From the NCBI GenBank assembly GCA_014859895.1, contig JACZKS010000147.1, positions 68,642 through 132,641 on the forward strand: DNA of 64,000 nt, in the 5' to 3' direction. Below are positions 7,600 to 60,788 of the stretch, piece by piece. The number at the start of each line of letters is the position of its first letter. Positions within the stretch are counted from its first letter, which is position 1. The translations under genes were made by a program, and so were the position numbers. The stretch is from Rhodospirillales bacterium. Its GTDB lineage: Bacteria; Pseudomonadota; Alphaproteobacteria; Rhodospirillales; Shumkoniaceae. Below the pieces are notes generated by a model. The model saw only the letters and a program-made list of their open reading frames with translations, did no database searches and had not been told where the DNA came from.

Positions 7600-7606
7600 C
7601 TTCCGG

Positions 7607-10819: not shown

Positions 10820-10864
10820 TCCTCGATCAACCCGAACCCGAAATACGCACCCCGTCGACCGCCC

Positions 10865-41353: not shown

Positions 41354-41638
41354 TCAAACGAGGCTGACCGACAGATGCTTGCCGACAGCCGAGGCAGCCC
41401 GGACCAGCGTGTCGAGCTGGATGCGGTCGTTGTTCGGATCAAGCAACCGGCCAAGCTGCGTGGCGCTGGTTTTCATGCGGCGGGCCATCTCCGATTTGGA
41501 GATGTTCTGCGCCGCCATCTCCTGCTCGATCTGAAGCGCCAACGTGCGCTTGATGGCGGTCGCGGTGACCTCCTCGTAAATGCCCTCGTCGCGCAGGAAG
41601 CTCTCGAAGCTTTCTCCGATCTGTGGGTTCTTAGCCAT
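41354..41638 (-). CDS. XRE-family HTH antitoxin (HigA-like)
   Basis: IGESFESFLRDEG, SKSEMARRMKTSATQLGRLLDP and TLVRAASAVGK; overlaps the toxin stop. Confidence 0.85.
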   Translation of the reverse strand: MAKNPQIGESFESFLRDEGIYEEVTATAIKRTLALQIEQEMAAQNISKSEMARRMKTSATQLGRLLDPNNDRIQLDTLVRAASAVGKHLSVSLV

Positions 41639-41891
41639 GGCGCTGCACCTCCTTCATGCGTGCGATCCGGCCCGACGATATATTGGAGCGGACTTCGTAG
41701 AGCCCCTTGACGCCACGGATGGGCGAGCATTTGGGCTTGCCGATGGGCCAGCTAAATTCCAGCGTGGCGATATCCTCGCCGATGGATTTGCGGTCCTGCG
41801 GCGTCAGTTCCATGAGCCAGTCCCTTACCGGCCGCTTGCCTGTGTCGGTCACAAAGAAGGCGGCCTGCAAAACCTTTCTGGGTTGGCTCAT
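41631..41891 (-). pseudogene. RelE/ParE (Gp49-like) toxin with in-frame internal deletion
   Basis: PVRDWLMEL...EFSWPIG.P...GLYEVRS...GRIAR joins directly to MKEVQRHG; the usual VLF...LHGFIKKTQKTP segment is missing. Confidence 0.75.
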
Positions 41892-42495: not shown

Positions 42496-42509
42496 TGGCG
42501 GAGGGGGTG
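42496..42509 (+). repeat. Distal att site: 14-bp copy of the tRNA-Ser 3' end (TGGCGGAGGGGGTG)
   Basis: Exact match to 60789-60802. Confidence 0.9.
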
Positions 42510-42598
42510 TCCGCCGTACATATGATTTCCTATGTCCATGCCTATCCACTAACGTTTAGCTAACGATTGGAATTTCAAGCACAATTTCCCGTTAGCGT

Positions 42599-42628
42599 TT
42601 GCCCCCATCCGTAGCCGTGTGCTACAAT
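42599..42628 (+). promoter_or_regulatory. Putative sigma70 promoter of integrase 1
   Basis: TTGCCC-18 nt-TACAAT with an extended -10 TG. Confidence 0.4.
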
Positions 42629-42664
42629 CCACGCTCCATTTGTGGGTTTCTTAGTGGGTAGAAA

Positions 42665-43900
42665 ATGGGTCGGCAAATTTCAAAATTGTCTGCTTTAGCG
42701 GTATTGAGGGAGAAAAAGCCGGGCCTATACTCGGACGGTGGAGGGCTCTACCTGCAGGTGTCGGACGCCGGCGCGAAATCGTGGATCTTCCGATTTATGC
42801 TCGACGGCCGGGCTCGGCAGATGGGCCTCGGCTCGCTACGTGCCGTTTCCCTTTCCCAGGCCAGGGACAAGGCTAGGGACGCTCTGAACCTGTGTAGCGA
42901 TGGCGTCGATCCAATCGACCATCGCAAAGCCACCCGCGCCAGTGCCCGATTCGAGGCAGCAAAGGCGATCACCTTCAAGAAGGCGGCAACCGATTACATC
43001 GCTGCCCACAAGACGGGATGGAGCAACGAGAAGCATGCGGCACAGTGGACCGCCACGCTTGAGAGCTACGTCTACCCGATCTTTGGCGACACTTCCGTTC
43101 ACGAGGTAGACGTCGCTCTGGTCATGAAGGTGTTGGAACCAATCTGGGCCAAGAAGCCAGAAACAGCCACGCGGGTGCGGGGCAGGATCGAATCCGTCCT
43201 CGATTGGGCAACCGCACGCGGCTACCGCAGGGGCGAAAACCCCGCCCGTTGGCGTGGCCATCTCTCAAACCTTCTGCCCAAGCGGTCGCGAGTCCAGACG
43301 GTAAAGCACCATCCGGCGCTGCCTTATGCCGACATCGGCGGGTTCATGGCGGATCTTCGCGCCCAAGGGGGCATAGCGGCCAGTGCGCTGCAGTTTCTGA
43401 TCCTAACGGCTGCCAGGACGGGTGAAGTGATTGGAGCTCGCTGCGCGGAAATTGGCGATACCGTCTGGACCGTCCCAGCTGATCGCACCAAGACGAAGAC
43501 GGAGCATCGGGTGCCACTTTCCGCGCGCGCATTGGAAATCCTCGCCGAGATGAAGATGCTGGGCGCAGGCCGGTACAATTTCGCGTTCCCCGGGGCCAGG
43601 AAGGGAAAGCACCTATCCAACATGGCGATGCTGAAGCTCTTGCGGCGCATGGGGCGTGATGATCTGACCGTACACGGCTTCCGATCGACCTTCAGGGATT
43701 GGGCAGCCGAGATGACGGGTTACCCGCGCGAAGTTGCGGAGATGGCGCTGGGCCACGCCGTCGGAGACAAGGTCGAGGCCGCTTATCGCCGCGGCGACCT
43801 GTTCAAGAAGCGGCGCCGGCTCATGGATGATTGGGCTCGGTACTGCGGCGCCGTGAAGGCGTCCGGTAAGGTCGTGCCGATGCGGGCCAAGGCCGGTTGA
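42665..43900 (+). CDS. P4/CP4-type tyrosine integrase (integrase 1)
   Basis: Arm-binding N-domain (DGGGLYLQVS...KSW, MGLGS); catalytic R (ARTGE), HGFR, LGH and Y (AAYRRG) intact. Confidence 0.95.
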   Translation: MGRQISKLSALAVLREKKPGLYSDGGGLYLQVSDAGAKSWIFRFMLDGRARQMGLGSLRAVSLSQARDKARDALNLCSDGVDPIDHRKATRASARFEAAKAITFKKAATDYIAAHKTGWSNEKHAAQWTATLESYVYPIFGDTSVHEVDVALVMKVLEPIWAKKPETATRVRGRIESVLDWATARGYRRGENPARWRGHLSNLLPKRSRVQTVKHHPALPYADIGGFMADLRAQGGIAASALQFLILTAARTGEVIGARCAEIGDTVWTVPADRTKTKTEHRVPLSARALEILAEMKMLGAGRYNFAFPGARKGKHLSNMAMLKLLRRMGRDDLTVHGFRSTFRDWAAEMTGYPREVAEMALGHAVGDKVEAAYRRGDLFKKRRRLMDDWARYCGAVKASGKVVPMRAKAG

Positions 43901-43988
43901 TGGTTCGACGGGGATAGGGTCGCTCCCGACAAGGCCGGTACCGCACCGGCTTTCCCCGTCGATTTTATGCGGCGTGTCAAGCGGAGGC

Positions 43989-44315
43989 ATGATGTTCATT
44001 CTGGATGGTTACTGTAGTTTCAAGGATGCCATCGACAGGCTTGGGCGGGCCAAATTTCCGAACGAGTGGACGGGAGAGGAGTTCGATGCCGAACTGTTGC
44101 CCATCCCCTCCGAACGGGCAGGGCGGCTCGAGAGGGAGTTGGACGAGCTCTGCGGGCCATCGGAGAGGAGCCCCCATAGGTCCGGATCTAGATTGCTCTG
44201 CCCTAAAACACGGGCCGAGCTTTGGGCCGAACACAGCGTTCCGAAATACAAGGCTCAGCCTGTGGAGGGTCCCAACATCATCGAGCATTTCCCGAAGCCG
44301 GCCATGGGCGCCTAG
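43989..44315 (+). CDS. Hypothetical protein
   Basis: GGAGG RBS before ATG 43989; sits between the integrase and the next gene. Confidence 0.55.
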   Translation: MMFILDGYCSFKDAIDRLGRAKFPNEWTGEEFDAELLPIPSERAGRLERELDELCGPSERSPHRSGSRLLCPKTRAELWAEHSVPKYKAQPVEGPNIIEHFPKPAMGA

Positions 44316-44317
44316 CC

Positions 44318-44899
44318 ATGGTCAAGGGCGGAGAAAAGGCCAGTGAGCTGCATGCGAAGCTTCTGGACGAGATGGGGGTCGACGCCGGCCCTGAGACCCT
44401 TCAACGTGACTTGGACGCGGCCCGGGAGTTCTACTTGAAGGAAGGTGCCCGGTGGCACGCCTTCACGGCGTTGAAGCTTGTGGCCAATCAGATCCTTCAG
44501 CAATCGCCGGATCCAGCAGGCGATTTTGACGGCGTGCCACCGGAGACGCCGGTTTCTGTTCCTTGGTGGGCGGTTCGTGCGGCCTACCTAGCTTGGATGA
44601 CATGGGAGAATGGGGAGTGTGGTCGAGCAGACAAGATTTCGCTCGGTCAAGCGTTTGGGGTCGAACGCATGGGCCAAGGTCAACGTTCAAGCTGGGAAGA
44701 ATCGGAAAAGAACGAGCGGCAAATGCGGATCGCGACTTTGGTTGCCGAGAAAATTGGCTGCGGTTCGCGCCCAATGCCCATTGATTATGCGCTGGATTTC
44801 GTTGCGATAGACCTTGATGTTGAGAAATCGATGGTGCGGGAGGCGTGGCGGGAGTTTGGCGGACGGGCCTTGGAGGCCCTAAGACGGGCTGGAAGATAA
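44318..44899 (+). CDS. Hypothetical protein, possible C-terminal HTH
   Basis: ATG 2 nt after the previous stop; IDYALDFVAIDLDVEKSMVREAW resembles an HTH. Confidence 0.6.
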   Translation: MVKGGEKASELHAKLLDEMGVDAGPETLQRDLDAAREFYLKEGARWHAFTALKLVANQILQQSPDPAGDFDGVPPETPVSVPWWAVRAAYLAWMTWENGECGRADKISLGQAFGVERMGQGQRSSWEESEKNERQMRIATLVAEKIGCGSRPMPIDYALDFVAIDLDVEKSMVREAWREFGGRALEALRRAGR

Positions 44900-45014
44900 A
44901 CCCGTTTAAAACCCAGAGCCTCTTGCGTGCAATTCCCAAACGCACGTGAATAATAACGGTCGCCTTATTCGAGGCGGCCAATTGGGGTCGCCTCAGAGTG
45001 CAGGAGACCCCAGA

Positions 45015-45242
45015 ATGTTCAAAACAAACTTAGCGCGTCAGGACGAGCCTGTAATCGATGGGCTTGCTGATCGCATCCTCGCGCCCATCCCAACCGCAGC
45101 CAGAGCACTCGGTATCGGCCGGACGCGCATGTACCAGATCATCGATGCCGGCAACGTCGAAAGCGTCAAGCTCGGCAAGCGCCACCTGGTCGTCGTGGAA
45201 TCGCTCCACGCATATGCGGATCGCCTGCGCGCCAAGGCCTAA
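45015..45242 (+). CDS. Excisionase/AlpA-like HTH DNA-binding protein
   Basis: IPTAARALGIGRTRMYQIIDAGNVESVKLGKRHLV. Confidence 0.88.
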   Translation: MFKTNLARQDEPVIDGLADRILAPIPTAARALGIGRTRMYQIIDAGNVESVKLGKRHLVVVESLHAYADRLRAKA

Positions 45243-45346
45243 GGCTGACCATCACCGTCGCCGTCGCCCAGGGCGTCGGTAACAGCATCACCTTCATTAT
45301 CACCTGCTTCGCGCTGCCCCACCCCTTACCTGACGGAGATTGCACC

Positions 45347-46411
45347 ATGGCCACCAACACCCTCGACCCCCGCAAGAGTTTCACCTCGACTCGGTTCAAG
45401 ACCTCGCGCTTCCCCGGGTTCGTGTCCCAGACCCTGGACACCACCGGCAACGTCGAGGAGGAGCCGGCCGCGGTCGCGTCCCCGCTACGTGGCGTCGGGC
45501 TTGGCCTTTCCACCGAGAGCGACGGGCCCGGTACCGATCCGGTTGGGAAGCAGTACACCGACATGAACCGTGACGAGATCGACAGGGAATATGAGAACCG
45601 CGCCCTCAATCAGGCCATGTTCGGGATCGGCATGCCGACGAACGCGGAGGAGCTGGGAAAGAAGGCTGTCGGGGTCTTGGCGAGTGCAACTCCTGTCGGC
45701 GCGATCGGTCCTTTGTCCAGGGGCCTTGATTATTTCACGAAGGAAGAACTGGACCGTGCCGAGCAGGCACTGTCGAAGCAAGAACTGAAGCGCGCCGCAG
45801 GAATTGCGGGAACACCGAATGCGGACAGGGACTTTGACCCCAGCGACATGACCGGTCTCGGCGTGACGGATTACGACAGGGCCGCCATCGAAGGTGATCC
45901 CACCGCGCGAGGCTACAACACGCCGCAACCCGACTACAGCGGTTCCGACGAAGCCGGCCCCAGTGTCGGGGACCCCAACGCGGGCACAACCACCGACACC
46001 GACGACAGCGGCCGTGGTGCCCAGGGTCCCAGCGAGGCCGATAGCGGTGGCACCTCGGCGAACTCCGACAACAGCCATGGCGGCAGCTCGGAGGGCCATG
46101 GCGGAGACCCGTCGACCTACCGCATGGGAGGCCCGATCCCCAACAGGGGTTCGCCAGAGATCGAACCGGTCCGCATCACCGCTCACGAAACCGAGCACGT
46201 CATGAACCCGGAGACGGTGCAGTTCTGGGGCCAGGACGTACTGGACGCCATGGGGGCCGTTGCCGAAGGCGTCGCCACGCCCGAGCAGGTCCAGCTCCTG
46301 CGCCAGATGATCAATCGGGGCCCCGCGGAATCGATATTGGAGGATCGGCCCAACCCGATGCAGGCCATGGGCTCGCCCCTGCGCGCCGCCGGGCGCGGCT
46401 ATCTCCAATAA
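45347..46411 (+). CDS. Acidic low-complexity protein with a tape-measure C-terminal-like motif
   Basis: GGAG RBS; D/S/G/T-rich linker followed by YRMGG...ITAHETEHVMNPETVQFWGQDVLDAM. Confidence 0.65.
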   Translation: MATNTLDPRKSFTSTRFKTSRFPGFVSQTLDTTGNVEEEPAAVASPLRGVGLGLSTESDGPGTDPVGKQYTDMNRDEIDREYENRALNQAMFGIGMPTNAEELGKKAVGVLASATPVGAIGPLSRGLDYFTKEELDRAEQALSKQELKRAAGIAGTPNADRDFDPSDMTGLGVTDYDRAAIEGDPTARGYNTPQPDYSGSDEAGPSVGDPNAGTTTDTDDSGRGAQGPSEADSGGTSANSDNSHGGSSEGHGGDPSTYRMGGPIPNRGSPEIEPVRITAHETEHVMNPETVQFWGQDVLDAMGAVAEGVATPEQVQLLRQMINRGPAESILEDRPNPMQAMGSPLRAAGRGYLQ

Positions 46412-46434
46412 CCACCGGCCGGAGGGTGTGCCCG

Positions 46435-46917
46435 ATGGCGACGACAAATCCGATATCGGAGAACGCTTACCTGCGCCTCTGCGACGGCTGGGCGCTCGGG
46501 TACGACAAAAACCAGTGGATCGTCCTGCGAGCCAAAAAGCGCGGAGATGAGACGTATTGGAACGCTGTGGGCTACATCGCCTCTACCAAGACGTTTCTCT
46601 GCCGTTATCTCCGCGAAAAAGGGGTCCAGATTTCAGACGGGGCTCAACAGGTCATCGACAACATGCCCGAGCGGTTCCTCGATTGGATCGCTGAGGTTCC
46701 GAACGGAGAAACTGTTGTCGATAGCCCCCGGCACCTCGCGGGTGACGCAGACGACGACAGCGACAACTCGCCTTATCCCCGCTCCGCAAAGGAAAGCGCC
46801 GACCGGGTGCAAACCGATCGGCGCCGAAATCTTTTAGCTATTCGCAACTCCCGGCCAGGAGAATCACGATGCGAACTTCTTACACCAAATCGACAACTTC
46901 CGCAACGTCGCCCCTGA
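46435..46917 (+). CDS. Hypothetical protein
   Basis: GGAGG RBS; globular N-terminal part (WALGYDKNQWIV...YWNAVGYIAS). Confidence 0.6.
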   Translation: MATTNPISENAYLRLCDGWALGYDKNQWIVLRAKKRGDETYWNAVGYIASTKTFLCRYLREKGVQISDGAQQVIDNMPERFLDWIAEVPNGETVVDSPRHLAGDADDDSDNSPYPRSAKESADRVQTDRRRNLLAIRNSRPGESRCELLTPNRQLPQRRP

Positions 46918-47144
46918 AGCTCGGCCGCCTGCCAAGCGATTCAAGCGATCCTTTCCACCTTCACGACAAAGCCAAGTTCGCCAAGCGCGCGCTCGAGGCC
47001 CTGAGCAAGTCCGCGTTCGAGGCCGGGGACCCGCAGACGATGCGTGCGGCAGGACAGGGCATTGTGCAGATCAACGAGCTGGCGTTGATGCACGGCTGGT
47101 GGGGCGCGCCCCTTCCTCGCAAGCGGGTACCGCAGGCATCGTGA
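46869..47144 (+). CDS. Hypothetical protein
   Basis: GGAG RBS; stop coupled (TGATG) to the next gene. Confidence 0.55.
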   Translation: MRTSYTKSTTSATSPLKLGRLPSDSSDPFHLHDKAKFAKRALEALSKSAFEAGDPQTMRAAGQGIVQINELALMHGWWGAPLPRKRVPQAS

Positions 47145-47368
47145 TGATCCGCCCCGAAGCCTTGAACGTTCTTCGCCTGCCGGTGACGCCAAAGGGTCGC
47201 CGGTGGCTGCGCGAGGCCGTGGTGCTTCTCCGAGGTTGGACCTTTCCGAACGGCGAACGGATCGAATTCTTCGATTGGGACCGGTTAGCTGAGTGCGGCG
47301 ATCTGGAACAATCCCGATGCCCCCAGGTGGCCGATGAGGCGCCGGCGCTCCAAAGGAGGCGGGGATGA
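47144..47368 (+). CDS. Hypothetical protein
   Basis: TGATG coupling upstream and ATGA coupling downstream. Confidence 0.5.
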   Translation: MIRPEALNVLRLPVTPKGRRWLREAVVLLRGWTFPNGERIEFFDWDRLAECGDLEQSRCPQVADEAPALQRRRG

Positions 47369-48147
47369 CTGGGCTGGCTTGGTTCCCGATGTATCCCCGG
47401 AACTGGCTGGTCGACACCCGCGTCCTTTCCGACCGGGCGCGCGGATTTTATGCGGACATCCTTTGCGCCATCTATGCCCGCGGCGGCCCCCTCCCGTTCA
47501 ACGGGCAAGAGGATGAGGACGAGTTGAGGAAACTCGGCGGCTATAAGCAGGTGCGGACCATGCGCGCTGTTCTGGATGAACTGCTTTCCAAGGAAAAACT
47601 CCATCTGATCAACGGCCATCTCGTGAACAATCGGGCGATGGAAGAACTGGCGATCGCCGCTAGGCACAGGGCCAATGGCGCGAAGGGCGGAAGGCCCCCG
47701 AAAGCGAATGGCGGATTTATTCCGAATAAATTGGATGTCTCGGGGGTTGGAATTGTGGAAAAACAATGGCCTAACCAAAACCCTACACAATCACATACAG
47801 TCTCTAAAGAGACTGCGCCCGGCGCCTATTCCGATGAGGAAAAGATCGAGGCCGACAGTCTCCGCGTCGTCATCTTTTCGACGTGCCGGAAGATCCTGAC
47901 TGAGCGGTACGCGATGGACGACGGAAAAGCCCGCCGCATTCTCGGCGGCCTCCGCAAAGATCATGCGGACGGTGAAATCGTCGACGCCTTCACCCGCTTG
48001 CAGGCCAAGCCCGACATTCAGGATCCAATTCCCTGGCTGAAGGCAGTCTTGAAGGCCGCGAAGCCCAACGGAACCGCCCGCCCGACGGCGCCGGCCATCG
48101 GTACGCCGGAAGCGGAACAGCGGGCTCGGGAGTGGGGGTACCGATGA
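47365..48147 (+). CDS. YdaU/DUF1376 family phage replication initiator
   Basis: WFPMYPRNWLVDTRVLS..ARGFY.DIL..., then NGAKGGRP. Confidence 0.85.
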   Translation: MTGLAWFPMYPRNWLVDTRVLSDRARGFYADILCAIYARGGPLPFNGQEDEDELRKLGGYKQVRTMRAVLDELLSKEKLHLINGHLVNNRAMEELAIAARHRANGAKGGRPPKANGGFIPNKLDVSGVGIVEKQWPNQNPTQSHTVSKETAPGAYSDEEKIEADSLRVVIFSTCRKILTERYAMDDGKARRILGGLRKDHADGEIVDAFTRLQAKPDIQDPIPWLKAVLKAAKPNGTARPTAPAIGTPEAEQRAREWGYR

Positions 48148-49436
48148 ACGACGATACCCACATCCTTGAGCCAATAGCGAAGCTGGTCAACGTCCAGGCC
48201 GAACAGATCGTCATCGGCGGGGTGATGCTGTACCCCCGCGTCTCGAAGCGGTTCACCTATCTCCGTTCCGACGATTTCGCGTTCGCGGGGCATGATCGCA
48301 TCTGGCGGGAAATCGACGCTCTGCGCCGGCAGGGGCAGGAGGCGTCACCAATCAGCCTGGCCCAACGACTGGTGGACGCCGGGGAGCTCGAGGATGTCGG
48401 CGGCGAAAAGTACATTCGCGAGTTGGCCAGCCAGGTTATCCCGAGCAGCTCGGCAGAGGCGGCGGCCGAACTCGTGCGCGATCTTTCCAACCGGCGCCGG
48501 CTGGTGGCCATCGCCGAAGCCGCGGCGCGTGACGCTGGCAATTTCGACCGCAGCGGGGATGAGCTCGTGGCCGCCTTGGTTCGCGATCTCCAGCGGCTCG
48601 CCGGCGACGGCGTGCGGCAGGGGCAATCGAAACGCGAAGTCGCCGAAGCCATCGTCGCCGGCCTCGGGAAAGCGCTGCCGTGTTACTCGACGGGAATTCC
48701 CAGCCTCGATGAAGCGATGGGAGGCGGCCTGTTCGCCGGGAAGCTCTACGGCGTCGCTGCCCGGAAGAAGGTTGGCAAGACGATCCTTCTGGGGAGCATT
48801 TCGCACAACCTCAACGCTGCCGGCGTGCGGCATGCCTTCATCGCCCTGGAAATGTCACCTGCCGAAATCGAGCAACGCAATGCGGCGCGGGCCGGCGGCT
48901 TCAACTCGATCCGCTTTCTCACGCGCGACGATCCGCACCTTGCCGAGCGCGTTGCCCAGTACGCCGTGACCACACCCGACGCGACGATCTACGAAGGCGC
49001 GCCCGGCGCCAGCTTCGAACAGATCCGCGCCATGGTTGCGCGCCACATCGCGGCCCGAGGCATCAAGGGCGTGGTGCTCGACTATTGGCAGCTGGTCGGC
49101 GGGAAGTCGCCGCGGGATTCCGAAGAATGGCACCTCCGTGAAGTTGCCCAATGGATGGCCGATACCGCGCGCCGCGAGGGCGTGTTCTTCTTGACGGCCG
49201 CGCAGGTTAACCAGACGGGGAACACCCGCGGCGGCGAAGGCCTGAAGCTCGCGTGTGACCAGTATTTCACGCTGCACCGCGAGAAGGAGGACAAGGGTGC
49301 ATGGCTCGAAATGGAGGAGAGCCGGCATACCATGTATCAGAACGTGGGGAACGCCGCGGCACCCGGCCTCTGGCTTGACCCTCACGGCCCGCACTTCCGG
49401 GATCCGGATCGAGCAAAAGCCGGAAGAGCGGCATAG
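48144..49436 (+). CDS. DnaB-like replicative helicase
   Basis: AEQIVIGGVM N-domain, ARKKVGKT Walker A, LEMS, VVLDYWQL Walker B and AAQVN; ATGA-coupled to DUF1376. Confidence 0.9.
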   Translation: MNDDTHILEPIAKLVNVQAEQIVIGGVMLYPRVSKRFTYLRSDDFAFAGHDRIWREIDALRRQGQEASPISLAQRLVDAGELEDVGGEKYIRELASQVIPSSSAEAAAELVRDLSNRRRLVAIAEAAARDAGNFDRSGDELVAALVRDLQRLAGDGVRQGQSKREVAEAIVAGLGKALPCYSTGIPSLDEAMGGGLFAGKLYGVAARKKVGKTILLGSISHNLNAAGVRHAFIALEMSPAEIEQRNAARAGGFNSIRFLTRDDPHLAERVAQYAVTTPDATIYEGAPGASFEQIRAMVARHIAARGIKGVVLDYWQLVGGKSPRDSEEWHLREVAQWMADTARREGVFFLTAAQVNQTGNTRGGEGLKLACDQYFTLHREKEDKGAWLEMEESRHTMYQNVGNAAAPGLWLDPHGPHFRDPDRAKAGRAA

Positions 49437-49437
49437 C

Positions 49438-49974
49438 ATGAAAGCCCTGGCCCTCGATATCAGCAGCAAGACGGGTTGGGCGTCTAGCGAGGGTCGGTCC
49501 GGCGTTCTGGACCTGTCCGGCCATCTTGATGACTTTGGTAAGCTGGGCTTCAATTTCCGCATGGACCTGGTCGACCTCTTCCGAGATACGACGCCCGACG
49601 TCGTTGTGATCGAAAGGCCCTTTGCGGCCGGAAAATCCGACCTCGCCAGACTGCCGGCCCATCTTGTATTCGTCGCGCATGAAACCGCCTTCGGCTGGAG
49701 AATTGCCCGCGCGGAAGTAACACCGGGGCAATGGAGAAAGGCAATTCTCGGCAATGGCGGGATGAAGCGCACCGAAGCGAAGAAGGCCGCCCTGGCATGG
49801 TGCCGCAGTCGGGGCTTATCCCCGCGTGACGACAACGAGGCCGACGCCCTGGCAATCCTGGCGTGGTGGGAACGGTTCGGCTGCGGACCGATCACGGGCC
49901 CAAGACGTGCGGAACGGGACGCCCTGGATACCGGAACAGCGGCCCGGCGCGGCGTAGATCTCGGCGCCGCATAG
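49438..49974 (+). CDS. RuvC-like Holliday junction resolvase (phage type)
   Basis: LALDISSKTGWA, VVIERPF and DDNEADALAIL acidic catalytic motifs. Confidence 0.85.
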   Translation: MKALALDISSKTGWASSEGRSGVLDLSGHLDDFGKLGFNFRMDLVDLFRDTTPDVVVIERPFAAGKSDLARLPAHLVFVAHETAFGWRIARAEVTPGQWRKAILGNGGMKRTEAKKAALAWCRSRGLSPRDDNEADALAILAWWERFGCGPITGPRRAERDALDTGTAARRGVDLGAA

Positions 49975-50159
49975 GGGTGTTCGGCGGGGGCACCGTCGCC
50001 GGGCGCAATCAGGTTCATCCTGGTTTAGTACGGTGGTGGGTCGCGCGCACCAAGATTGGCGGATTTCTGAGGAATATGATCTCCGGCGCGGACCAATCAG
50101 GTTCATAAGGGTTTAGTCTCGCGCATAGGGTTTTCCTTCATATTGCTTTAGTTTCGCGG

Positions 50160-50429
50160 ATGCGCTTCCACTTCAAAAAACTTCAATCCCGAACGGATTT
50201 GAAAGAACCCGCCACGGGCCGATACGAGGCTATCGAAATTGGTTGCCGTTGCGAAGAAATCCTGGAGAATTTGGACGAGGTAAGTGTTCGGATGTGGATC
50301 GCCTACCACGACGTCGACGGCGCGGAAATAAGGGGCGATGACCGTAAGGCCGTGGCACGCCTGCAACGAGGGAGTGAGAAACTCGAGAAGCTTGCCGGAG
50401 GATTTCCCGGCGCAGTTCGCGATATCTGA
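50160..50429 (+). CDS. Hypothetical protein
   Basis: 89-aa charged ORF with no recognised motif. Confidence 0.4.
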   Translation: MRFHFKKLQSRTDLKEPATGRYEAIEIGCRCEEILENLDEVSVRMWIAYHDVDGAEIRGDDRKAVARLQRGSEKLEKLAGGFPGAVRDI

Positions 50430-50444
50430 CCGAGGGGTTACAAT

Positions 50445-50777
50445 ATGCGGACGGTTCGTGAAGGTCATTCAAACGGCGGCACCTACATTCGCGCTTGGCA
50501 TGCCCTCGTCGCCCTGTTCATCCTGGCGCTAGTTGCTTCAGGTTATGTCCAGTTTGCCACTCGCGGCCTCATCTTGGGACCTCGTTCGTGGCCTGTCAGT
50601 TTAAGTTTGATCGCTGGTGGAGCCTTAGCCCTTATCGCGCTGCCGGCACTCGTAGTCATCCCTTGGCGATTGATCCAAAGGCGCTTGGGGACGATAACGG
50701 ATACGCCTGTTGTGGTTGGCGTCATCGTTTTCATCCTGTGCGCGATTTTCCTGCTCAAGGGGGCAACGATGGGCTGA
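50445..50777 (+). CDS. Small membrane protein (3 predicted TM segments)
   Basis: Three hydrophobic stretches. Confidence 0.55.
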   Translation: MRTVREGHSNGGTYIRAWHALVALFILALVASGYVQFATRGLILGPRSWPVSLSLIAGGALALIALPALVVIPWRLIQRRLGTITDTPVVVGVIVFILCAIFLLKGATMG

Positions 50778-51216
50778 CCAGGGCGACCGCAGCCGAAACC
50801 GAAGGTGAACCGGTAGGCGTTGTCGTCGGCCATGCTTTCTGCTTGCTGATCCGAAGAAGCAGGACCCAGCCACTTTTCGACTACACGAAATCCACGCCGC
50901 GGCGACAATGCCGTTCTGACGGCAAACGCGACGGGCACACGAGAGGAAGGCAGATCGGGCCTCGGTGTGAAGGGTTTACTACCTTCGTACGTTCATCTCC
51001 CCGAAAATTAGCCTCTGCTGGCCCTGCCCGCCGTTCCCTTCCCCAACTCTCCCAGGCACCAGCTTCCGGCTCGATCGCCAATGGCGTGGTCGTGTTGACG
51101 AGGCGCGGACCGACCCCGTGGATGTTTCGGCCTTGTGGGCCGAAGATCCCGGAGATGCGTTCTCGGAAATTTGTGCCGTCAGCCCCGCTATCGATCATTC
51201 AGGGTTCGGTGTCCGA

Positions 51217-51852
51217 TCATTGTTGGCGCCAGGCCGCCGAAATCGCCTTTGCTTCTTGCAGTTGCGCCGGGTTCAAGGCAGGTCCAATTTCGGCTCTCAG
51301 CCGTGTCGCGGAATCCAGTCCGGCATAGCTTGCGGAATCAGCCCATCCATAAGCACGGGTCTTGTCGCGGCTTAGCCCGATGCCCTTCCAATAGAGGTAC
51401 GAAAGAAGGGCCTGGGCTGGTGGGCAGCCCTGCAGCGCGGATCGACGAACATACTCGGCGCCCAACGCGCTTTCGTGCGTCCGCAACAAGATCTCGCCGC
51501 CCCATGCAAACTGCGCCAGCGGAACGCCTTTCGCAGCATATTCCGAGAGCACCGCGCTCCGCTCGCCGGCGGGCAATGTTGAGCCGGGGTTGTACACCTT
51601 GTCGATGGCGTTCTGAGCCATCCCCACCTCGACGAGCTCAGGCGTAGGCAAGTCTTTGAACGGCCGGTCCGAGTAGCGCCTGTAGATCACACTGCTGAAA
51701 TGGCCTTCTTTCTCTGCCGCTGCCGCCTCCATCGATCTGTTGAGATCATCTACGAAAAGGCGAAGGTCGGTATGGCGGATTGCGCTTTGGGACGCCGTTT
51801 CACATCCGCCAACTGCCAGGAGACTGAGGAATAGAATGAGGTAACGTTTCAT
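51217..51852 (-). CDS. Sel1-repeat lipoprotein
   Basis: MKRYLILFLSLLAVGGC lipobox; SALQG.PPAQALLSYLYWKGIGLSRDKTRAYGW Sel1 repeat. Confidence 0.8.
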   Translation of the reverse strand: MKRYLILFLSLLAVGGCETASQSAIRHTDLRLFVDDLNRSMEAAAAEKEGHFSSVIYRRYSDRPFKDLPTPELVEVGMAQNAIDKVYNPGSTLPAGERSAVLSEYAAKGVPLAQFAWGGEILLRTHESALGAEYVRRSALQGCPPAQALLSYLYWKGIGLSRDKTRAYGWADSASYAGLDSATRLRAEIGPALNPAQLQEAKAISAAWRQQ

Positions 51853-52236
51853 AGCGCCGACCTTCCAATCTGCGTCCACGAACCGGCTTCCACTGCCTCG
51901 CGTGCGCGTGCACGCGCGAGGGCTACGTACAAAGAACACGGGTCCCGGCACCTGGTCGACCCGCCTACGTCAGGCCGTTGTTAGGGAGAACGCTAAGCTC
52001 TGAAGTGTCGATCCGCTCGCCTAATCCCTCGGGAGGTGCCGTCACGGACGCATATGCCTCGTTGAGGGTCATGACGCGCATAGGGCGTCTTCCACCGGGA
52101 AATTCTACGGCGGCACGTGCCCAAAAAAAAGCCCTAGCCGAAAACGATATTGGAAGGGGGCATAACCCCCTCACTGGTTCGAGGAGACAACGAACCGTGA
52201 TAGCCTCTCAGGGTATCAGTAGCGGGAGACACGATC

Positions 52237-52728
52237 ATGGAGGCAAAGCCCTACAAGGTGATGAGCTACCGATTTTCGGTTGAGTTGAAGATCCCGGCGC
52301 ATGTCCAATTTCCCACAGACAAGATGATCGGAAACCTGCTCGCGGCCATCGATGCATATGACGATCGGAATCGCTTTTTCGGGGGGCGACGATTGGAGGA
52401 CGGCCAATCCTGTATCATCGAAAAAGGCGTTGGGCTGGATGGGATAGGGGTTACGGACGAGCAGTGGCCGCGTCTCGACGAGGAACCCGAAGAACGCCCC
52501 TTTGAGATGGAATCGGAAAAAGACCTGGACGAGGCCATCGACGTTAGCTGTCGGAGCGACGATTTTCAGGAACTGCTCGAGGAAACGCGGGCGAATATGT
52601 GGGATGCCTATTACGACGTGCGCCGGGCCGAAACCAGGAACCAGCTTCGCGGGGCCTTAACGCGTCTACGGCGCAGGCGGAGCGAATTGACAAAACTGAT
52701 CGGCGGCATCCCGGGTAGGCCCGGTTGA
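52237..52728 (+). CDS. Hypothetical acidic protein
   Basis: 163-aa ORF preceded by a GGGAG RBS. Confidence 0.55.
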   Translation: MEAKPYKVMSYRFSVELKIPAHVQFPTDKMIGNLLAAIDAYDDRNRFFGGRRLEDGQSCIIEKGVGLDGIGVTDEQWPRLDEEPEERPFEMESEKDLDEAIDVSCRSDDFQELLEETRANMWDAYYDVRRAETRNQLRGALTRLRRRRSELTKLIGGIPGRPG

Positions 52729-52729
52729 T

Positions 52730-52753
52730 AAAAGGCCCCGCGCGAGGCGGGGC
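52730..52753 (-). terminator. Rho-independent terminator for the Tat-signal gene
   Basis: GCCCCGC-GCGAG-GCGGGGC hairpin with an A-run on its left (U-tract on the minus strand). Confidence 0.65.
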
Positions 52754-52786
52754 AGGAAGAAAAGATTTTGTCGTTAACCTTTGCGG

Positions 52787-53500
52787 TCAGGCGGCCGCGG
52801 CGTCTGACGGATACGGCGTGCGGGCCATCCTTTCGCAGTCTATCAGTGCGGACATTAGCGCCGCATCGTCCATGCTCTTGCACTCGCCCTTCAGGTAGCT
52901 GGCGCGCTGTTCAGGCTCAAAGAGGGTGTTCGTCCCGAGCCGCAGTTTGACCGCGAATCCGGCGGGACCGGCAGCCGGCGTAGCGATGATCTTTCGCAAG
53001 ATCTCCTCAGCCCGGTTTCCGAGGGCGTCGATCCTGCGGGCGAGCTCCACGGCGCGGGGATGCTTTTTGGCGGCGACGCATTCGGCTTCGTATTTGTCGA
53101 ACGCAACCAAGGTCTCTTGGTGTCTGGCCGCGATTTCCTCGGGCGCCCCGGCCCGCCATAGCGTCGGGGCCGTGCCGGTGAAGAACCGGTCGATATCGTG
53201 GCGCGTCGTGAAAGGAGCCCTGGGATCGTCGGGCAAAACCTCCCATCCGGGCTCATAAAAATAGCCCGGCCAGTAAAGGATGTCGGGCCGCTTTGGCATC
53301 GTGATGGCGTCATACTCGTTTTGCACGGTGCACGTTTCTCCCGTCGTGTCCCAATACTCTCGTTCCAGGGCGATCAGCGTGGCGTCCGAGTTCGGCGCGG
53401 CCGCCGCCGGGAATAACGCGCCAGCCGTGACGGCTGCGGCAGCGCTGGCCGCCAGCATGCCGGAGTATTTGAGCGCATCACGACGTGAAATCTTAGACAT
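52787..53500 (-). CDS. Hypothetical protein with twin-arginine-like N-terminus
   Basis: MSKISRRDALK...AAAA; helical body (DATLIALEREY, ATPAAGPAGFAVKLR); AGGAG RBS. Confidence 0.75.
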   Translation of the reverse strand: MSKISRRDALKYSGMLAASAAAAVTAGALFPAAAAPNSDATLIALEREYWDTTGETCTVQNEYDAITMPKRPDILYWPGYFYEPGWEVLPDDPRAPFTTRHDIDRFFTGTAPTLWRAGAPEEIAARHQETLVAFDKYEAECVAAKKHPRAVELARRIDALGNRAEEILRKIIATPAAGPAGFAVKLRLGTNTLFEPEQRASYLKGECKSMDDAALMSALIDCERMARTPYPSDAAAA

Positions 53501-53522
53501 GGAGCTTCTCCTTGCTAGGCTG

Positions 53523-53575
53523 TGATACCTGAAGTATCATATATTCTCAGATCAATTGCAATACCTGAGGTATCA
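53523..53575. promoter_or_regulatory. Two 17-bp palindromic operators (53523-53539, 53559-53575)
   Basis: TGATACCTGAAGTATCA and CAATACCTGAGGTATCA between the divergent Tat-signal and XRE genes. Confidence 0.75.
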
Positions 53576-53577
53576 TT

Positions 53578-53814
53578 TTGATCACAAGCGAACAGGTCAG
53601 GGCCGCCCGGATGCTCCTGCGGTGGGAGCAGAAGGACTTGGCCGGCAAGGCAGGAGTGTCCCTGCCGACGATCAAGAGGCTGGAAACGCAGCCCGGCGAA
53701 TTGCGGGCGCATAGTTCGACGCTCAGCGCCATCACCAGGGCGATCGAAGCCGCCGGCGTCATATTCATCCCCGAAAATGGCGGCGGCCCGGGAGTCAGGT
53801 TGAAAAAGGCCTAA
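53578..53814 (+). CDS. XRE-family HTH transcriptional regulator
   Basis: QVRAARMLLRWEQKDLAGKAGVSLPTIKRLE...EAAGVIFI...GGGPGVRL. Confidence 0.92.
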   Translation: MITSEQVRAARMLLRWEQKDLAGKAGVSLPTIKRLETQPGELRAHSSTLSAITRAIEAAGVIFIPENGGGPGVRLKKA

Positions 53815-53884
53815 ATCCAGGTAGAACCCGGACCCGTTGCGCGGTACTCTTTCTGCGTGCGCTGCCGCGTGGAAAGGGGGATCC

Positions 53885-54811
53885 GTGGTGGACGCCTGGG
53901 GTCTTCGATTCTTCCTGCTCGATGAAAACGACGGGCTTTGGCGCGTGTCGCAGCGCGTCGCTCAAGAGCTGATCACTGGCCGAACTCGCCTCCCCCAATT
54001 TGCGAGCAAACGCGTCCGCGCGGTTGACGCGTATGTCACTCTCGACGCGCGCAAGCCAGTGAGGTTGGAATCGGCTCGCGGGTCATACTGGAATTTCGAC
54101 AAGTCCGGGAGGTGGTTTTTGCCCAGGAGCGCCCGTGGGTTGATCATGGATACGATCGACTTCGCGCCGCCAAAGGAAGGCAACGTCGTCCCGTTGAGCG
54201 AATTCAGCAAGCGGCTGCTCAAATCACGGGAGCGCTGGAAGCTTTCCCCCCACGAAATCACACTGATCGTTCACGCCATCTGGCCAGAGCAGGCTGGGCG
54301 GCCGACCAAGCTACCCCCGTTCATTCAAGGTAACCGAGAGAGGAAGCCGCCGATGACCTACGAAGCCAAGAACGCGCGGAGCGAGTTGTCGGATCACGTC
54401 TTCAAGGCGAGCCTGATTATCGACCGCCTATCTCCGCCATCTCTCAAGGCCTTGGTCGCGGATCTCGACGACCAAGAGCCTGACGACATGCTCGAGCTAT
54501 GGCGGGGCATCGCGGATGCCTGCCGCCGGAAATTGGCGATCGAGCAGGCACGGCGGCGGGACAAAGGGGAATGGCGCGCCGAGGTCGAGGTTATCAGGTG
54601 GGAGGACGGCCGTCACGGGAGGGTAGGCCAGTCGGTCTTCAGCGAGAGCGTCCAGACGACTAGCCGAAAGGCAGCCGTCAAGGCGGGCCGCGAGCTGTTG
54701 AAGAAGCACGCCGACCATTTCGACACAGACTGCACGGTCGAGGTCAACCTCCTCACCGGAATTGAATGGGAGAGGCGCGGCGCGCCGGATAGTACCAGTG
54801 AGACGGAATAG
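53885..54811 (+). CDS. Hypothetical multi-domain protein
   Basis: Long ORF; GTG start re-called after GGGGG; no recognised motif. Confidence 0.6.
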   Translation: MVDAWGLRFFLLDENDGLWRVSQRVAQELITGRTRLPQFASKRVRAVDAYVTLDARKPVRLESARGSYWNFDKSGRWFLPRSARGLIMDTIDFAPPKEGNVVPLSEFSKRLLKSRERWKLSPHEITLIVHAIWPEQAGRPTKLPPFIQGNRERKPPMTYEAKNARSELSDHVFKASLIIDRLSPPSLKALVADLDDQEPDDMLELWRGIADACRRKLAIEQARRRDKGEWRAEVEVIRWEDGRHGRVGQSVFSESVQTTSRKAAVKAGRELLKKHADHFDTDCTVEVNLLTGIEWERRGAPDSTSETE

Positions 54812-54942
54812 TGGCGTAGTGGGGCCGCGCACAGGGCTGTTACCCCCGTCAACGTTCAATCATGGTTATATAATCCGCCTCGACTTTCGCCCTCGAACAG
54901 CGCAATAATTTCCTAAACTAAAAATCGTAATGGGGGGATGTC

Positions 54943-55182
54943 ATGAGACGGATGCGGGTAGTGCTGGCCGTTTTCGTGCTGCTGGGCGCCTTTGTTCCAT
55001 CTGCATCGTCCATCCAAACGCCGCTGCCGCAATCGATTTGCGAACAGATCATTCGGAGCGGTGCGCCGGTAGACGAGATTGCGAAAAGCGGTTGTTGCTC
55101 GTGGCACGGCGGCGTCTGCGGATGCAGGGGCGGGCGGGCAGTCTGTTGCGACGGTGCACTCAGCCCATCGTGCGGCTGCTGA
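54943..55182 (+). CDS. Small secreted Cys-rich protein (GCCSWHGGVCGC type)
   Basis: Signal peptide; KSGCCSWHGGVCGCRGGRAVCCDGALSPSCGC. Confidence 0.8.
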   Translation: MRRMRVVLAVFVLLGAFVPSASSIQTPLPQSICEQIIRSGAPVDEIAKSGCCSWHGGVCGCRGGRAVCCDGALSPSCGC

Positions 55183-55230
55183 GTACAGACCCTAGTTTCC
55201 GATTGTGGGTCACTTTTTGGGGGGGAGAAA

Positions 55231-55548
55231 ATGCGGCTGTTCCTTGCCGCCTTGTGCGGATTGATGCTGGCATCACTCATCAGCGTCAGCCCGGCAACGG
55301 CTCAATCTCGCAATTTGCTCGAAACCACCGAACAGGCACGGCAGCGCCATTCAGCCGAGCGATGGAACCAGTATGAACAGCGCGGCTACCGGGCGCCGCT
55401 TGGGGGTTACCAAGAGCGGCTCGGCGATCCGGCCCCCCGTGGGACCGAACGGCCTGGCTACACGTCACCTCAGCCCTATGGATCTGGAAACAGCAGTCCG
55501 GGGTGGGGTAGCAGCCAGTCACAGGATCGACACTGGGGCACCAGATAG
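55231..55548 (+). CDS. Small secreted protein, Q/G/S/R-rich
   Basis: Signal peptide ending in ATA-Q; GGAGA RBS. Confidence 0.65.
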   Translation: MRLFLAALCGLMLASLISVSPATAQSRNLLETTEQARQRHSAERWNQYEQRGYRAPLGGYQERLGDPAPRGTERPGYTSPQPYGSGNSSPGWGSSQSQDRHWGTR

Positions 55549-55612
55549 CCGCCTTCGGGTCGCGCGCGACGCCTGTACGCGCGGAAGCCTGTTCCAGGGT
55601 GTCGGAGTAGCC

Positions 55613-56302
55613 ATGAGCACCACAACTGCCCAGCGCCTTCTTTTCTGGTCCTTCGTTGCGGCGTGCCTTTGGCCATCATTGTTGCTGGCGCACGGCGGCG
55701 GCCTCGACGCGATGGGCTGCCATCACAACAGGAAGGCTGGCGGCTACCACTGCCACCGCGGCCCGCTGGCCGGTCAGTCGTTCGCGTCCAAGGAAGACGC
55801 CGCCCGTGCCCTGCAGCGAGCCAGCCAGCCGCAACCGTCGGCGCGCTCATCCACACCCCCGCCCCCGGCCGCCACGCCGGCGCCTGCCGTGCTTTCCGGC
55901 GTCGCCTCAGTGATAGACGGCGACACGCTGGAAATCCACGGCCAGCGGATCCGGCTTCACGGCATCGACGCGCCCGAGTCCGCCCAGTTGTGCAAAGACA
56001 CGCGCGGGAAGGATTACCGCTGCGGCCAGCAGGCCGCTCTTGCGCTCGCCGATCGCATCGGCCGCCGGCCGATCGAGTGCGAAAAGCGCGACGTCGACCA
56101 TTACAAGCGGATTGTCGCCGTCTGTCGGCTGGGTTCCGAGGTCCTGAACGCCTGGCTCGTTTCCGAGGGGTGGGCAATGGCCTATCGGCATTACAGTCGT
56201 GAATATGTGCCGCAAGAGACCCAAGCGCGGAAGGTAGGTCGCGGCATTTGGCGAGGGGAGTTTGCACCGCCGTGGGATTGGCGCAATAGAGCCGGCCGTT
56301 GA
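55613..56302 (+). CDS. Secreted thermonuclease (SNase-like) with N-terminal YHYH-like His/Cys domain
   Basis: AHGGGLD..GCHHNRK.GGYHCH, Pro-rich linker, VIDGDTL...RIRLHGIDAPE, DHYKRIVA and GIWRGEF..PWDWR. Confidence 0.9.
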   Translation: MSTTTAQRLLFWSFVAACLWPSLLLAHGGGLDAMGCHHNRKAGGYHCHRGPLAGQSFASKEDAARALQRASQPQPSARSSTPPPPAATPAPAVLSGVASVIDGDTLEIHGQRIRLHGIDAPESAQLCKDTRGKDYRCGQQAALALADRIGRRPIECEKRDVDHYKRIVAVCRLGSEVLNAWLVSEGWAMAYRHYSREYVPQETQARKVGRGIWRGEFAPPWDWRNRAGR

Positions 56303-56389
56303 TTTCCCGAACCCGTTTGGCGCGCCTCTACACAATGAAGGTCGCGCTCCGGGGGGGTGCGATATAGTGAAAATACGCAGTTGACTTAA

Positions 56390-56866
56390 ATGGCAACAGC
56401 CTTACATATTGCGAACCTAGGTGGCCTGATCCGATGGGAACTCGATCCCGTCGACAGGCGACAGGTGGAACGATTGCTGTTTCTTACGCCCGAAATGGAA
56501 CGTTGGATGCGCGACGTCCTACCACTCGAACCTGCTGACCGCGGTCGCGACATATCTCCTATCGAACAGGTCGTGTCTGTATTCGACCAGATAGCCGGCG
56601 ATCCGGCTTTTCGCGGAGTTGGCGATTTCGTCCGGCTGCATCCACAGTATCAGGGCGTCTACGAAGTGAAGGTGACAGACGTCAGGGTCTTCGGGTGGTT
56701 CCCGGCATGCAGGAACTTCATTGCCTGTTCCGGCGAAATGAAGAGGCGAACAAAAGGGAACTTTCGGCTCGTGAGGGAACACGTACGAGCAGCTATCCGT
56801 TGCCGTGAACGTCTGCACTTGGACGAACCGAAATTTGTGATGGGGGCACTACATGAGATCCTATAG
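56390..56866 (+). CDS. Putative RelE/HigB-fold toxin
   Basis: VRLHPQYQGVYEVKVTDVRVFGWF resembles the RelE beta core; overlaps the HTH gene. Confidence 0.6.
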   Translation: MATALHIANLGGLIRWELDPVDRRQVERLLFLTPEMERWMRDVLPLEPADRGRDISPIEQVVSVFDQIAGDPAFRGVGDFVRLHPQYQGVYEVKVTDVRVFGWFPACRNFIACSGEMKRRTKGNFRLVREHVRAAIRCRERLHLDEPKFVMGALHEIL

Positions 56867-57230
56867 GCCGCATATCGACGCTCGCCGCAAGAAGTTCGTC
56901 GATTTGATCGGACGTGTGCATCTCGAAATTGGGAATGCTGTCCACGATTGGACGACGGCGGAGAACGTATCCAAGACGGACCTTGCGCGAATTCTTGGCT
57001 GCAACAAGTCGGTCCTGAGCCGTCGCCTGAACGGCACAGCGAACCTGACACTGAAAACGATCGCCGACTTGGCATGGGCAACTGGACGCGATATCGACTT
57101 CGCTCTTCCCAAGGCGGCCCATCGGAACGTTCCCGTTCAAGCACCTCGCCCAGTTGTAACCCGGGTGAGCGCAACAACAACGACAACCGAGGCGCCGACA
57201 ACGCGGGTGGTTACCCTGGTGCACCGGTGA
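56853..57230 (+). CDS. XRE/HigA-like HTH antitoxin with about 40-aa Thr/Val/Pro-rich C-terminal tail
   Basis: SKTDLARILGCNKSVLSRRLNGTANLTLKTIADLAWA, then PVQAPRPVVTRVSATTTTTEAPTTRVVTLVHR. Confidence 0.85.
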   Translation: MRSYRPHIDARRKKFVDLIGRVHLEIGNAVHDWTTAENVSKTDLARILGCNKSVLSRRLNGTANLTLKTIADLAWATGRDIDFALPKAAHRNVPVQAPRPVVTRVSATTTTTEAPTTRVVTLVHR

Positions 57231-57667: not shown

Positions 57668-57696
57668 TCGGCATTCTCTCCCACAGAGTAAAATCT

Positions 57697-58191: not shown

Positions 58192-58209
58192 TACCTATCG
58201 TCGGGGAGG

Positions 58210-58614: not shown

Positions 58615-58690
58615 GGGCCAGGACACCGGATGCTGATCCGCTGACGGCGCCCTCTGTTGCAGCAGGATGGGGCGCCCTATCTTTTCCAGC

Positions 58691-59377: not shown

Positions 59378-59385
59378 ACTGAACT

Positions 59386-60639: not shown

Positions 60640-60788
60640 AGAAAAAGCCCTCCTGTTGGGAAAATTGCCCACGCACAGGTCGGAATTTCCAACGCAGGAT
60701 TACCGCGCTTCGGTTTGTAGGCTGGTTTGTGGGCTAAAGAATATTGTATTTTATAATGCGTTGAAAATAAACGCTTTTATAAAATAGT

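Follow-up and report, generated by a model that had tools for sequence, protein, structure and literature searches.

An island gene next to an excisionase in a Rhodospirillales bacterium combines a tape-measure-type module with homology to a podophage ejection-block protein

Gene X and the layout of its product

We analysed a 64,000-nucleotide stretch of the genome of a Rhodospirillales bacterium (assembly GCA_014859895.1, contig JACZKS010000147.1, positions 68,642 to 132,641), hereafter the window, and focused on a gene, here named X, which lies in an integrated island directly after an AlpA/excisionase-type gene (xis). Using open reading frame (ORF) and codon-position GC analysis, homologue searches, alignment and synteny, we annotated X (45347-46411, forward strand) as a 354-aa acidic protein homologous to a protein from the ejection block of podophages. 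The ORF has the signature of a real gene, with codon-position GC values of 0.65, 0.52 and 0.80, like those of true genes in this window of 64 % GC, and a ribosome-binding site, GGAG, is located 9 nt upstream of the ATG. A short acidic gene of this length following the excisionase had been noticed in a preliminary description of this DNA made from the sequence alone, and this held: the isoelectric point (pI) of the product is 4.48, its net charge is about -24 and the gene upstream encodes an HTH_17 protein. X is the sole copy in the genome.

The product can be divided into five parts, all encoded on the forward strand. The N-terminal residues 1-62 (45347-45532) form a conserved segment with the pattern R-F/Y-x-T/S-x-R-F/Y-P-G-F, a candidate docking or targeting segment, which shares 90 % amino acid identity with the copy from phage L001 and has a ratio of nonsynonymous to synonymous substitution rates (dN/dS) of 0.18. 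The middle, residues 63-160 (45533-45826), shares 43-47 % identity with the phage copies and is predicted to be helical, with AlphaFold2 (AF2) helices at residues 75-154 modelled at low confidence. It contains a conserved, weakly hydrophobic stretch rich in Gly, Ala and Pro (residues 106-124, 45662-45718), and the Kyte-Doolittle maxima (1.1-1.5) fall at this same place in 6 of 6 members of the X family. Residues 161-255 (45827-46111) constitute an acidic disordered linker consisting of 16 % D, 19 % G, 13 % S and 9 % T, with a pI of 4.05 and a predicted local distance difference test score (pLDDT) below 50; it is the most variable part of the family alignment. The tape-measure-type module YRMGGPIPNRGSPEIEPVRITAHETEHVMNPETVQFWGQDVLDAMGAV (residues 258-305, 46118-46261) follows. 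The last part, residues 306-354 (46262-46408), contains a helix at 312-333, taken from the low-confidence full-length AF2 model, and a conserved tail, RPNPMQAMGSPLRxAG, invariant in 4 of 4 family members. This succession of N-terminal segment, helical Gly-rich region, acidic linker, module and short helix resembles the C-terminal part of a tape-measure protein.

The full-length AF2 model reached a pLDDT of 41.7 and was therefore unusable for a fold search. No signal peptide or clear transmembrane helix was found in X, the hydropathy maximum being 1.12. Full-length X matched no family in Pfam or PHROG, and neither X nor its neighbours had any match in PADLOC 2.0.0.

The C-terminal motif is a tape-measure-type module

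X has just three close relatives in a set of 5.8 billion protein clusters, with identities of 66, 55 and 50 %. In the four-member alignment, the N-terminus is conserved, the middle fairly conserved and the linker variable, while the C-terminal block is conserved best. The profile built from it retrieved 69 proteins at E <= 0.001 from 1.84 billion representatives. Four of them are full-length relatives: P0003 and P0004 had been part of the query alignment, and P0005 and P0035 are new. The other 65 share with X only a block of about 50 residues, with E-values down to 6.7e-13.

According to the preliminary description, a motif like those at the C-termini of tape-measure proteins is encoded at 46118-46252, after a long disordered linker rich in D, S, G and T. 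These positions correspond to Y258-M302, and the composition and pLDDT of the linker are as described. From 71 proteins we derived the consensus [YWF]R.GG.IP.DGD..LEPV..TAHEGEFV.RPEAV...G...L..LN. X itself reads GG...AHETEHVMNPETV...G..VLDAM and contains each element of the signature, that is the early GG, (H/S)-x-G/T-E-(F/Y/H)-V, P-E-A-V, G and L-x-x-(L/M)-N; its residues G261, G262, E281, E283 and E289 are invariant or nearly so in the 71 proteins.

No relevant Pfam family was matched by these 71 proteins. PHROG 3547, annotated as 'tail length tape measure protein', is matched by 34 of them, and another five tape-measure PHROGs are matched by others of the set. Protein P0017 (781 aa), which was found by the X-only profile, contains three copies of the module and hits PHROG 3547 at 1.8e-28. 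The C-terminal 105 residues of X alone hit PHROG 3547 at E 0.046, on the same profile positions as the stronger members. We then have the profile of the module (A3), built from 56 sequences including three from the X family, which matched Douge gp16 with two copies (residues 962-1012 and 1410-1459, E 2.7e-14), lambda gpH (residues 732-777, E 0.0068) and JBD30 gp46 (residues 1018-1067, E 0.023). The match to virion proteins on which the preliminary description depended was thus found for the C-terminal block. A search of the PDB by sequence with the four-member X profile returned low-complexity noise only.

In gpH, the module lies outside any Pfam domain, after Tape_meas_lam_C (627-701) and a Gly-rich hydrophobic stretch. 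We note that the gpH module (about 2336-2473 in L102) directly follows this Gly-rich stretch, the presumed site of cleavage to gpH*. The published structures of lambda, Douge and JBD30 resolve just the tape-measure protein's last 33-42 residues (PMC12617516, PMC11445458, PMC13033339), and the module falls outside the resolved part; in lambda it belongs to the part of the cleaved gpHC fragment that is not resolved. When modelled by AF2 with the 56-sequence alignment, the module reached a pLDDT of 83.7 and consists of an extended first half followed by two short helices. In the structural comparison proposed in the preliminary description, Foldseek with this model found nothing in the PDB and only weak matches in BFVD (E >0.2), several of them to tape-measure proteins.

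Judging from these profile matches, the C-terminal motif of X is a genuine tape-measure-type module. The likeness to lambda gpH, Douge gp16 and JBD30 gp46 lies in a block of about 50 residues, in which two glycines are nearly invariant, the GE-aromatic-V core is invariant and a pair of helices follows. In gpH the local layout is similar too, with a Gly-rich or hydrophobic stretch before the module and a short C-terminal helix after it. The link is made through the profile; X alone gives the weak PHROG 3547 match only. X is not itself a tape measure and merely shares a module with these proteins. Unlike them, it has 354 residues, most of them disordered, no long coiled coil and no cluster of tail genes around it, and its phage homologues lie in podovirus modules. 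Being short and with relatives in short-tailed phages, X cannot measure a tail.

The module also contains HETEH at residues 280-284, which could suggest an HExxH zincin metallopeptidase. More than 60 relatives have HEGEF/Y at this place, so X is not a zinc peptidase, and the segment is modelled as extended and not helical.

Homologues of X in virion gene blocks of podophages

Homologues residing mainly outside phages would have refuted the preliminary description. We found the opposite, as the full-length homologues lie mainly in phage virion modules, in four lineages (L001, L003, L012 and L015; proteins P0003, P0004, P0005 and P0035) that share a single synteny. P0003 comes from a 61.9-kb IMG/VR contig. 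Reading along the block, the genes encode proteins of 472/473 and 171/172 aa, then X, then proteins of 230-236 and 344-388 aa, and after these a giant protein. The 472-aa gene belongs to the head closure Hc3 / Phage_stabilise family of P22 gp10 (tail-tube), and a pectate-lyase tailspike is encoded upstream of it. The giant protein is DarB-like with pyrophosphatase and methylase domains. It was located at 13197-21086 in L001 (2735 aa), at 13172-20077 in L003 (2302 aa as called, the contig being incomplete) and at 8179-13908 in L012 (4292 aa, with a faint ART-PolyVal match). The giants of these three phages join inorganic pyrophosphatase, Eco57I-type methylase and helicase domains. We also noticed an IS605-type OrfB/TnpB gene (Cas12f1-like_TNB) inside the structural module of L001 (2693-3880, reverse strand), which is absent from the related phage L003.

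Compared with its counterpart in Pseudomonas phage KPP25 and relatives, the capsid protein of this phage group shows 39.6 % identity. In the same region of KPP25 and Bcep22, virion or internal virion proteins are annotated ahead of the DarB-like giant. The late regions of these two phages contain no ORF with the module, so the X family is confined to a subgroup. The ejection genes of podoviruses come after the tubeB (gp10) gene (PMC10386132) and after the nozzle and needle genes (PMC9509320), and the phage homologues of X occupy such a position in all four lineages; the copy in the window is island-borne and does not. The more distant short module proteins P0019 and P0011 are encoded directly after a gene of about 490 aa, which at the P0019 locus is downstream of an SU10-type adaptor.

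X evolves faster than the genes around it, to judge from pairwise identities: the X of the window is 29 % identical to the L012 copy, and the neighbouring genes of L003 and L012 share 35-64 %. Fast divergence has been reported for ejection proteins, which can often be matched by size and synteny only (PMC8954989). The phage neighbours of 172, 230 and 344 aa had no match in the PDB.

On the evidence of gene order and annotation, the block that holds the phage homologues of X is the ejection (internal virion) protein block of podoviruses related to Bcep22 and KPP25. In our reading, the phage homologue belongs to this block and has a layout like that at the C-terminus of tape-measure proteins. 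It resembles the known podovirus ejection proteins (P22 gp7/gp20/gp16, T7 gp14-16, SU10 gp20-24) in gene position, next to injected proteins, and in its fast divergence. X matches none of them in sequence or profile. To our knowledge, no podovirus ejection protein has been reported to carry a tape-measure module.

The family is very rare. No match to X, P0005 or P0011 was found by tblastn in 50,697 phage records, and no new members of the X family in a one-genome-per-species set, the JGI metagenome contigs, 401 genomes of the same order or a region-restricted protein search. The IMG/VR search returned the L001 contig again and nothing new.

Phage-island mosaicism and selection

The second island copy of X resides on a metagenomic contig (L006). 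Both island copies were compared with phage L001 at the DNA level. Identity is 82-95 % over approximately the first 230 nt, reaching 95 % for the window copy within the initial 90 columns of the alignment (roughly 90 nt). It drops to 41-57 % in the middle and rises over the last 270-280 nt to 85 % for the window and 96 % for L006, where one stretch of 90 alignment columns is identical. The middle of L001 clusters with that of phage L003, and the island copies pair with each other there. The homology between phage and island ends inside the gene, 18 nt before the stop codon, and upstream it reaches at most the ribosome-binding site. The island copies of X are by this pattern recombination mosaics with phage-like ends and a divergent middle, and it follows that copies from an island and from a phage have shared a single cell.

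The dN/dS between the two island copies is 0.46 overall, with the low N-terminal value given above, and 0.40 between two phage copies. By this measure the island X evolves under constraint like the phage copies.

The island and the position of X as cargo

The composite island spans 18.3 kb (42496-60802). Its boundaries are marked by a 14-nt direct repeat, TGGCGGAGGGGGTG, equal to the 3' end of tRNA-Ser. The left copy (42496-42509, forward strand) is identical to the right one at 60789-60802, which is the 3' end of the tRNA-Ser(CGA) gene (60789-60878, reverse strand), as seen from the tRNA call and the repeat search. These are the only two copies in the window and none is internal to the island. 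Just inside each end lies an inward-facing integrase gene (42665-43900, forward; 59386-60672, reverse), and the two resemble the same integrase of island L020, with 58 % and 47 % identity, respectively. A pair of Gp49-like (HigB-type) and HTH_37 antitoxin-type genes is located just outside the left repeat (41354-41891, reverse strand).

The genes described next are on the forward strand. The tyrosine integrase at 42665-43900 (Arm-DNA-bind_3, Phage_int_M and Phage_integrase by Pfam and PHROG) is also 49 % identical to that of L018. It is followed by an ORF with no Pfam, PHROG or PADLOC match and an uncertain start (44222-44899), in the position of unrelated 184/193-aa genes of L006 and L020. 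The xis gene (44946-45242, likely true start ATG 45015) has an HTH_17 match at E 2.3e-4 and a weak match to a PHROG for recombination directionality factors; it is 36 % identical to a 71-aa gene of L020. Since no terminator better than chance was found between xis and X, we infer that both are transcribed together.

Downstream of X lies o163 (46426-46917), a backbone gene of the o92 family, which comprises 20 relatives of 92-165 aa; over 89 aa it shares 93 % identity with its L006 counterpart, and it has a C-terminal extension. The extension is Asp-rich and 70 residues long (46694-46917), most members of the family having 92-98 aa in total, and the homology to L006 stops exactly where it starts. 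A further ORF (46869-47144) overlaps the end of o163. The replication module, identified by Pfam and PHROG scans, encodes a DUF1376 / primosomal-type protein (47365-48147), a DnaB-like replicative helicase (48132-49436) and a RuvC-like Holliday junction resolvase with an uncertain start (49255-49974, phrog_159, E 9.4e-19). After the last gene, a 24-nt direct repeat, CAATCAGGTTCATCCTGGTTTAGT, occurs at 50006-50029 and 50094-50117 (the second copy 88 % identical) and GC falls to 0.56; the repeat may mark a junction of tandem elements or an origin.

The claim that the element lacks other structural genes was borne out, as Pfam and PHROG scans of the ORFs at 42496-60802 recovered no capsid, portal, terminase or tail gene. 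An integrase, an AlpA-type regulator and an own replication module without virion genes form a satellite-like backbone, which is the same in the islands L018 to L021. In these, the o92-family gene stands directly after the HTH_17 gene and before a DUF3987 gene or a 926-aa replicase, with the integrase adjacent. Their xis and o92 genes abut or overlap with no X between them, and the xis and o163 of the window are also related to their counterparts in the X-less islands. The existence of such relatives makes X an inserted cargo in a family of minimal integrase-AlpA-replicase islands. The preliminary description had raised the co-occurrence of X with this type of element: X is present in two islands, those of the window and L006, and absent from L018 to L021.

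In both islands with X, the gene sits between the AlpA-type excisionase and a small o92-family gene. The order in L006 is integrase, 184-aa gene, HTH_17 gene, X, o98 and HTH_36 gene, and its X is 66 % identical to that of the window. DNA identity between the two is 82 % at 45335-45948 and 89 % at 46106-46693. The shared DNA extends from 12 nt before the start of X to codon 89 of o163, and the integrases of the two islands are only 27 % identical. As X with the start of the o92-family gene is the sole DNA common to both islands, the pair (45335-46693, forward strand) moves as a two-gene cassette.

The 1.2-Mb contig L018 contains also a second, oppositely oriented set of genes (6393-7444, reverse strand) with a 114-aa o92-like gene, an HTH_36 gene, small ORFs and DUF5681. 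This set resembles the right half of L006, and thus two types of islands with o92-family genes stand there side by side.

Search for a resident helper phage

The genome contains no second X and no other ORF with the module. We found no L001-type capsid or gp10-like gene either; the negative result for the capsid is weak, as the Pfam capsid control gave no match in any control genome.

Contig C14 (11.4 kb) encodes phage tail-fibre-like genes at 678-11442, one of 775 aa related to a Laminin_G_3 phage gene and one of 323 aa. A small gene of this contig matches a gene next to the L001 tail fibre with 74 % identity over 91 residues, a hint that phages of the L001 type use a similar host. A housekeeping protein of the host has its closest named relatives in the Burkholderiales (Roseateles, Pelomonas and Ideonella, for example), which would be in keeping with phages of the Bcep22/KPP25 type, although this is a weak point. 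Three large paralogous proteins (785, 581 and 409+ aa) are encoded on C14 as well, sharing N-terminal or central regions; the first and the third have a similar C-terminal domain, and they are reminiscent of polymorphic or polyvalent phage proteins.

What X may do

The reading that we prefer, and to which we give about an even chance, is that X is a captured virion protein, which would be expressed upon induction of the island and would enter, or compete for, the delivery apparatus of a partner phage. X would be transcribed along with alpA/xis upon island induction in the course of an infection with an L001-type podovirus. The N- and C-terminal segments matched to the phage would dock, so that X would be taken into particles or would compete for the docking sites, replacing the phage copy. 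The outcome would be either efficient delivery of the island DNA by the particles (piracy) or phage offspring whose ejection apparatus is faulty (interference), and we do not favour one of the two. The full length of X, with all conserved motifs retained, points to a working substitute more than to a crippled decoy, without proving either. As far as sequence goes, this supports the preliminary description, which had suggested a mini ejection or pilot protein that modifies or hijacks helper virions, or a decoy interfering with helper tail assembly. A more elaborate version is put forward only tentatively. It pictures a minimal AlpA-type satellite whose only virion-related gene is a chimeric 'mini tape measure', or first ejection protein, of its helper podovirus; recombination would keep the docking ends matched and the middle its own, and the product would replace the phage copy, biasing DNA delivery in favour of the satellite or sterilising the phage progeny.

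Satellites with copies of helper structural proteins are known, for instance CpmB (scaffold-like) of Staphylococcus aureus pathogenicity islands (SaPIs), the capsid-like Ccm of SaPIbov5, the TerS of satellites and the capsid-forming phage-inducible chromosomal islands (PICIs) (reviewed in PMC6893505). The island with X resembles them in that an element without a full set of virion genes carries a homologue of one helper structural protein. The SaPI and PICI proteins act on capsid size or packaging, whereas X would act on the ejection or tail-channel step, and its island has no genes for packaging or capsid size. With the Tai systems, found in PICIs, P4-like satellites and prophages, the particles released by an infecting phage are non-infectious, and one of these systems keeps the P22 gp26 needle from joining (PMC11364771). 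Like X, they are cargo of satellites or prophages. By the description in that paper, on which this distinction is based, the Tai proteins are not copies of virion proteins and occupy other hot spots. In its general build, the island resembles P4-like elements, Gram-negative PICIs and the phage-inducible chromosomal minimalist islands known as PICMIs (PMC10803314), which are small, integrated in tRNA genes and composed of an integrase, an AlpA-type HTH_17 gene and a replication module, with no structural genes. It differs from P4 and PICIs by lacking their hallmark genes and by a replicase made of DUF1376, DnaB and RuvC proteins in place of the DUF3987 primase, and its dependence on a helper is presumed.

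Several points weigh against the capture of a virion protein for use on a partner phage. A helper would supply its own copy, and the benefit of a second one is unclear. In the data searched, X is known from only two island copies and four phage lineages. The assignment of the family to the virion comes from synteny and the shared tape-measure module, and full-length X shows no similarity to the ejection proteins of P22, T7 and SU10 or to any Pfam or PHROG family. With no L001-type prophage in the genome, no helper is at hand. Hallmark satellite genes (sid, psu, delta, epsilon, terS, rpp, ppi and capsid-size genes) were not detected among the island ORFs by Pfam and PHROG, so that even the satellite status is something we infer. 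The 96 % DNA identity between L006 and phage L001, over 268 nt, is the only hint of induction or packaging by a helper.

Of the other explanations, the one that survives best, though still unlikely, makes X a morphogenetic or regulatory factor, for example a chaperone or scaffold for ejection proteins or the tail channel, which is not retained in the particle and through which the island would redirect or stall assembly. X is mostly disordered and acidic, like many assembly chaperones and scaffolds, and its place in a late module marks the gene as late and nothing more. The tape-measure-type module, in addition, is seen in none of the solved structures of tape-measure proteins. Nevertheless, in those proteins it is part of a chain retained in the virion and later ejected, and in KPP25 and Bcep22 the corresponding place of the X homologue is within a block of virion proteins.

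Less probable again is a role in superinfection exclusion, with X, made in a cell that carries the island, meeting the incoming ejection apparatus or an envelope target and preventing L001-type phages from delivering their DNA. Ends matched to one phage type, as those of X are, would be required of a specific blocker, and mobile elements often carry defences (PMC11364771). Such a blocker is hard to reconcile with a protein that has no signal peptide or clear transmembrane helix and such a low hydropathy maximum, encoded in an AlpA/xis operon that is normally silent until induction. The negative PADLOC search also speaks against it, and X is a full-length orthologue, not a fragment.

We consider it similarly improbable that X is a passenger without any role, left by recombination between island and phage or by a decayed prophage. 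This would fit its rarity and a genome without the cognate phage. The reading frame is however intact in two islands with integrases as different as those of the window and L006, and the dN/dS values, overall and at the N-terminus, are similar to those of the phage copies. Moreover, the insertion is precise, brings its own ribosome-binding site and occupies the same backbone position in both islands, and the backbone family consists of small islands and not of decayed prophages.

Very improbable, finally, is that X serves the biology of the island together with the o92-family gene, for example in replication control or excision, and that the phage copies do the same job: the two genes do travel as one cassette, and the o92-family gene is translationally coupled to the replicase in related islands, but the phage X stands in a late virion module without an o92 partner, related islands work without X, and the C-terminal module belongs to tail proteins.

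If X is indeed a captured virion protein acting on a partner phage, its island would be the first of its kind, as we know of no other satellite that targets the ejection step. DNA delivery would then join capsid size, packaging and tail assembly among the steps contested by mobile elements. The mosaic pattern ties a type of island to a type of phage from sequence alone and predicts which parts of X dock. The analysis also defines a module of about 50 residues, outside Pfam, in lambda gpH and other tape-measure proteins, and finds it here in a short, expressible protein. X would accordingly offer a small soluble model for a widespread, unnamed tape-measure module that has been invisible in every cryo-electron microscopy structure so far.

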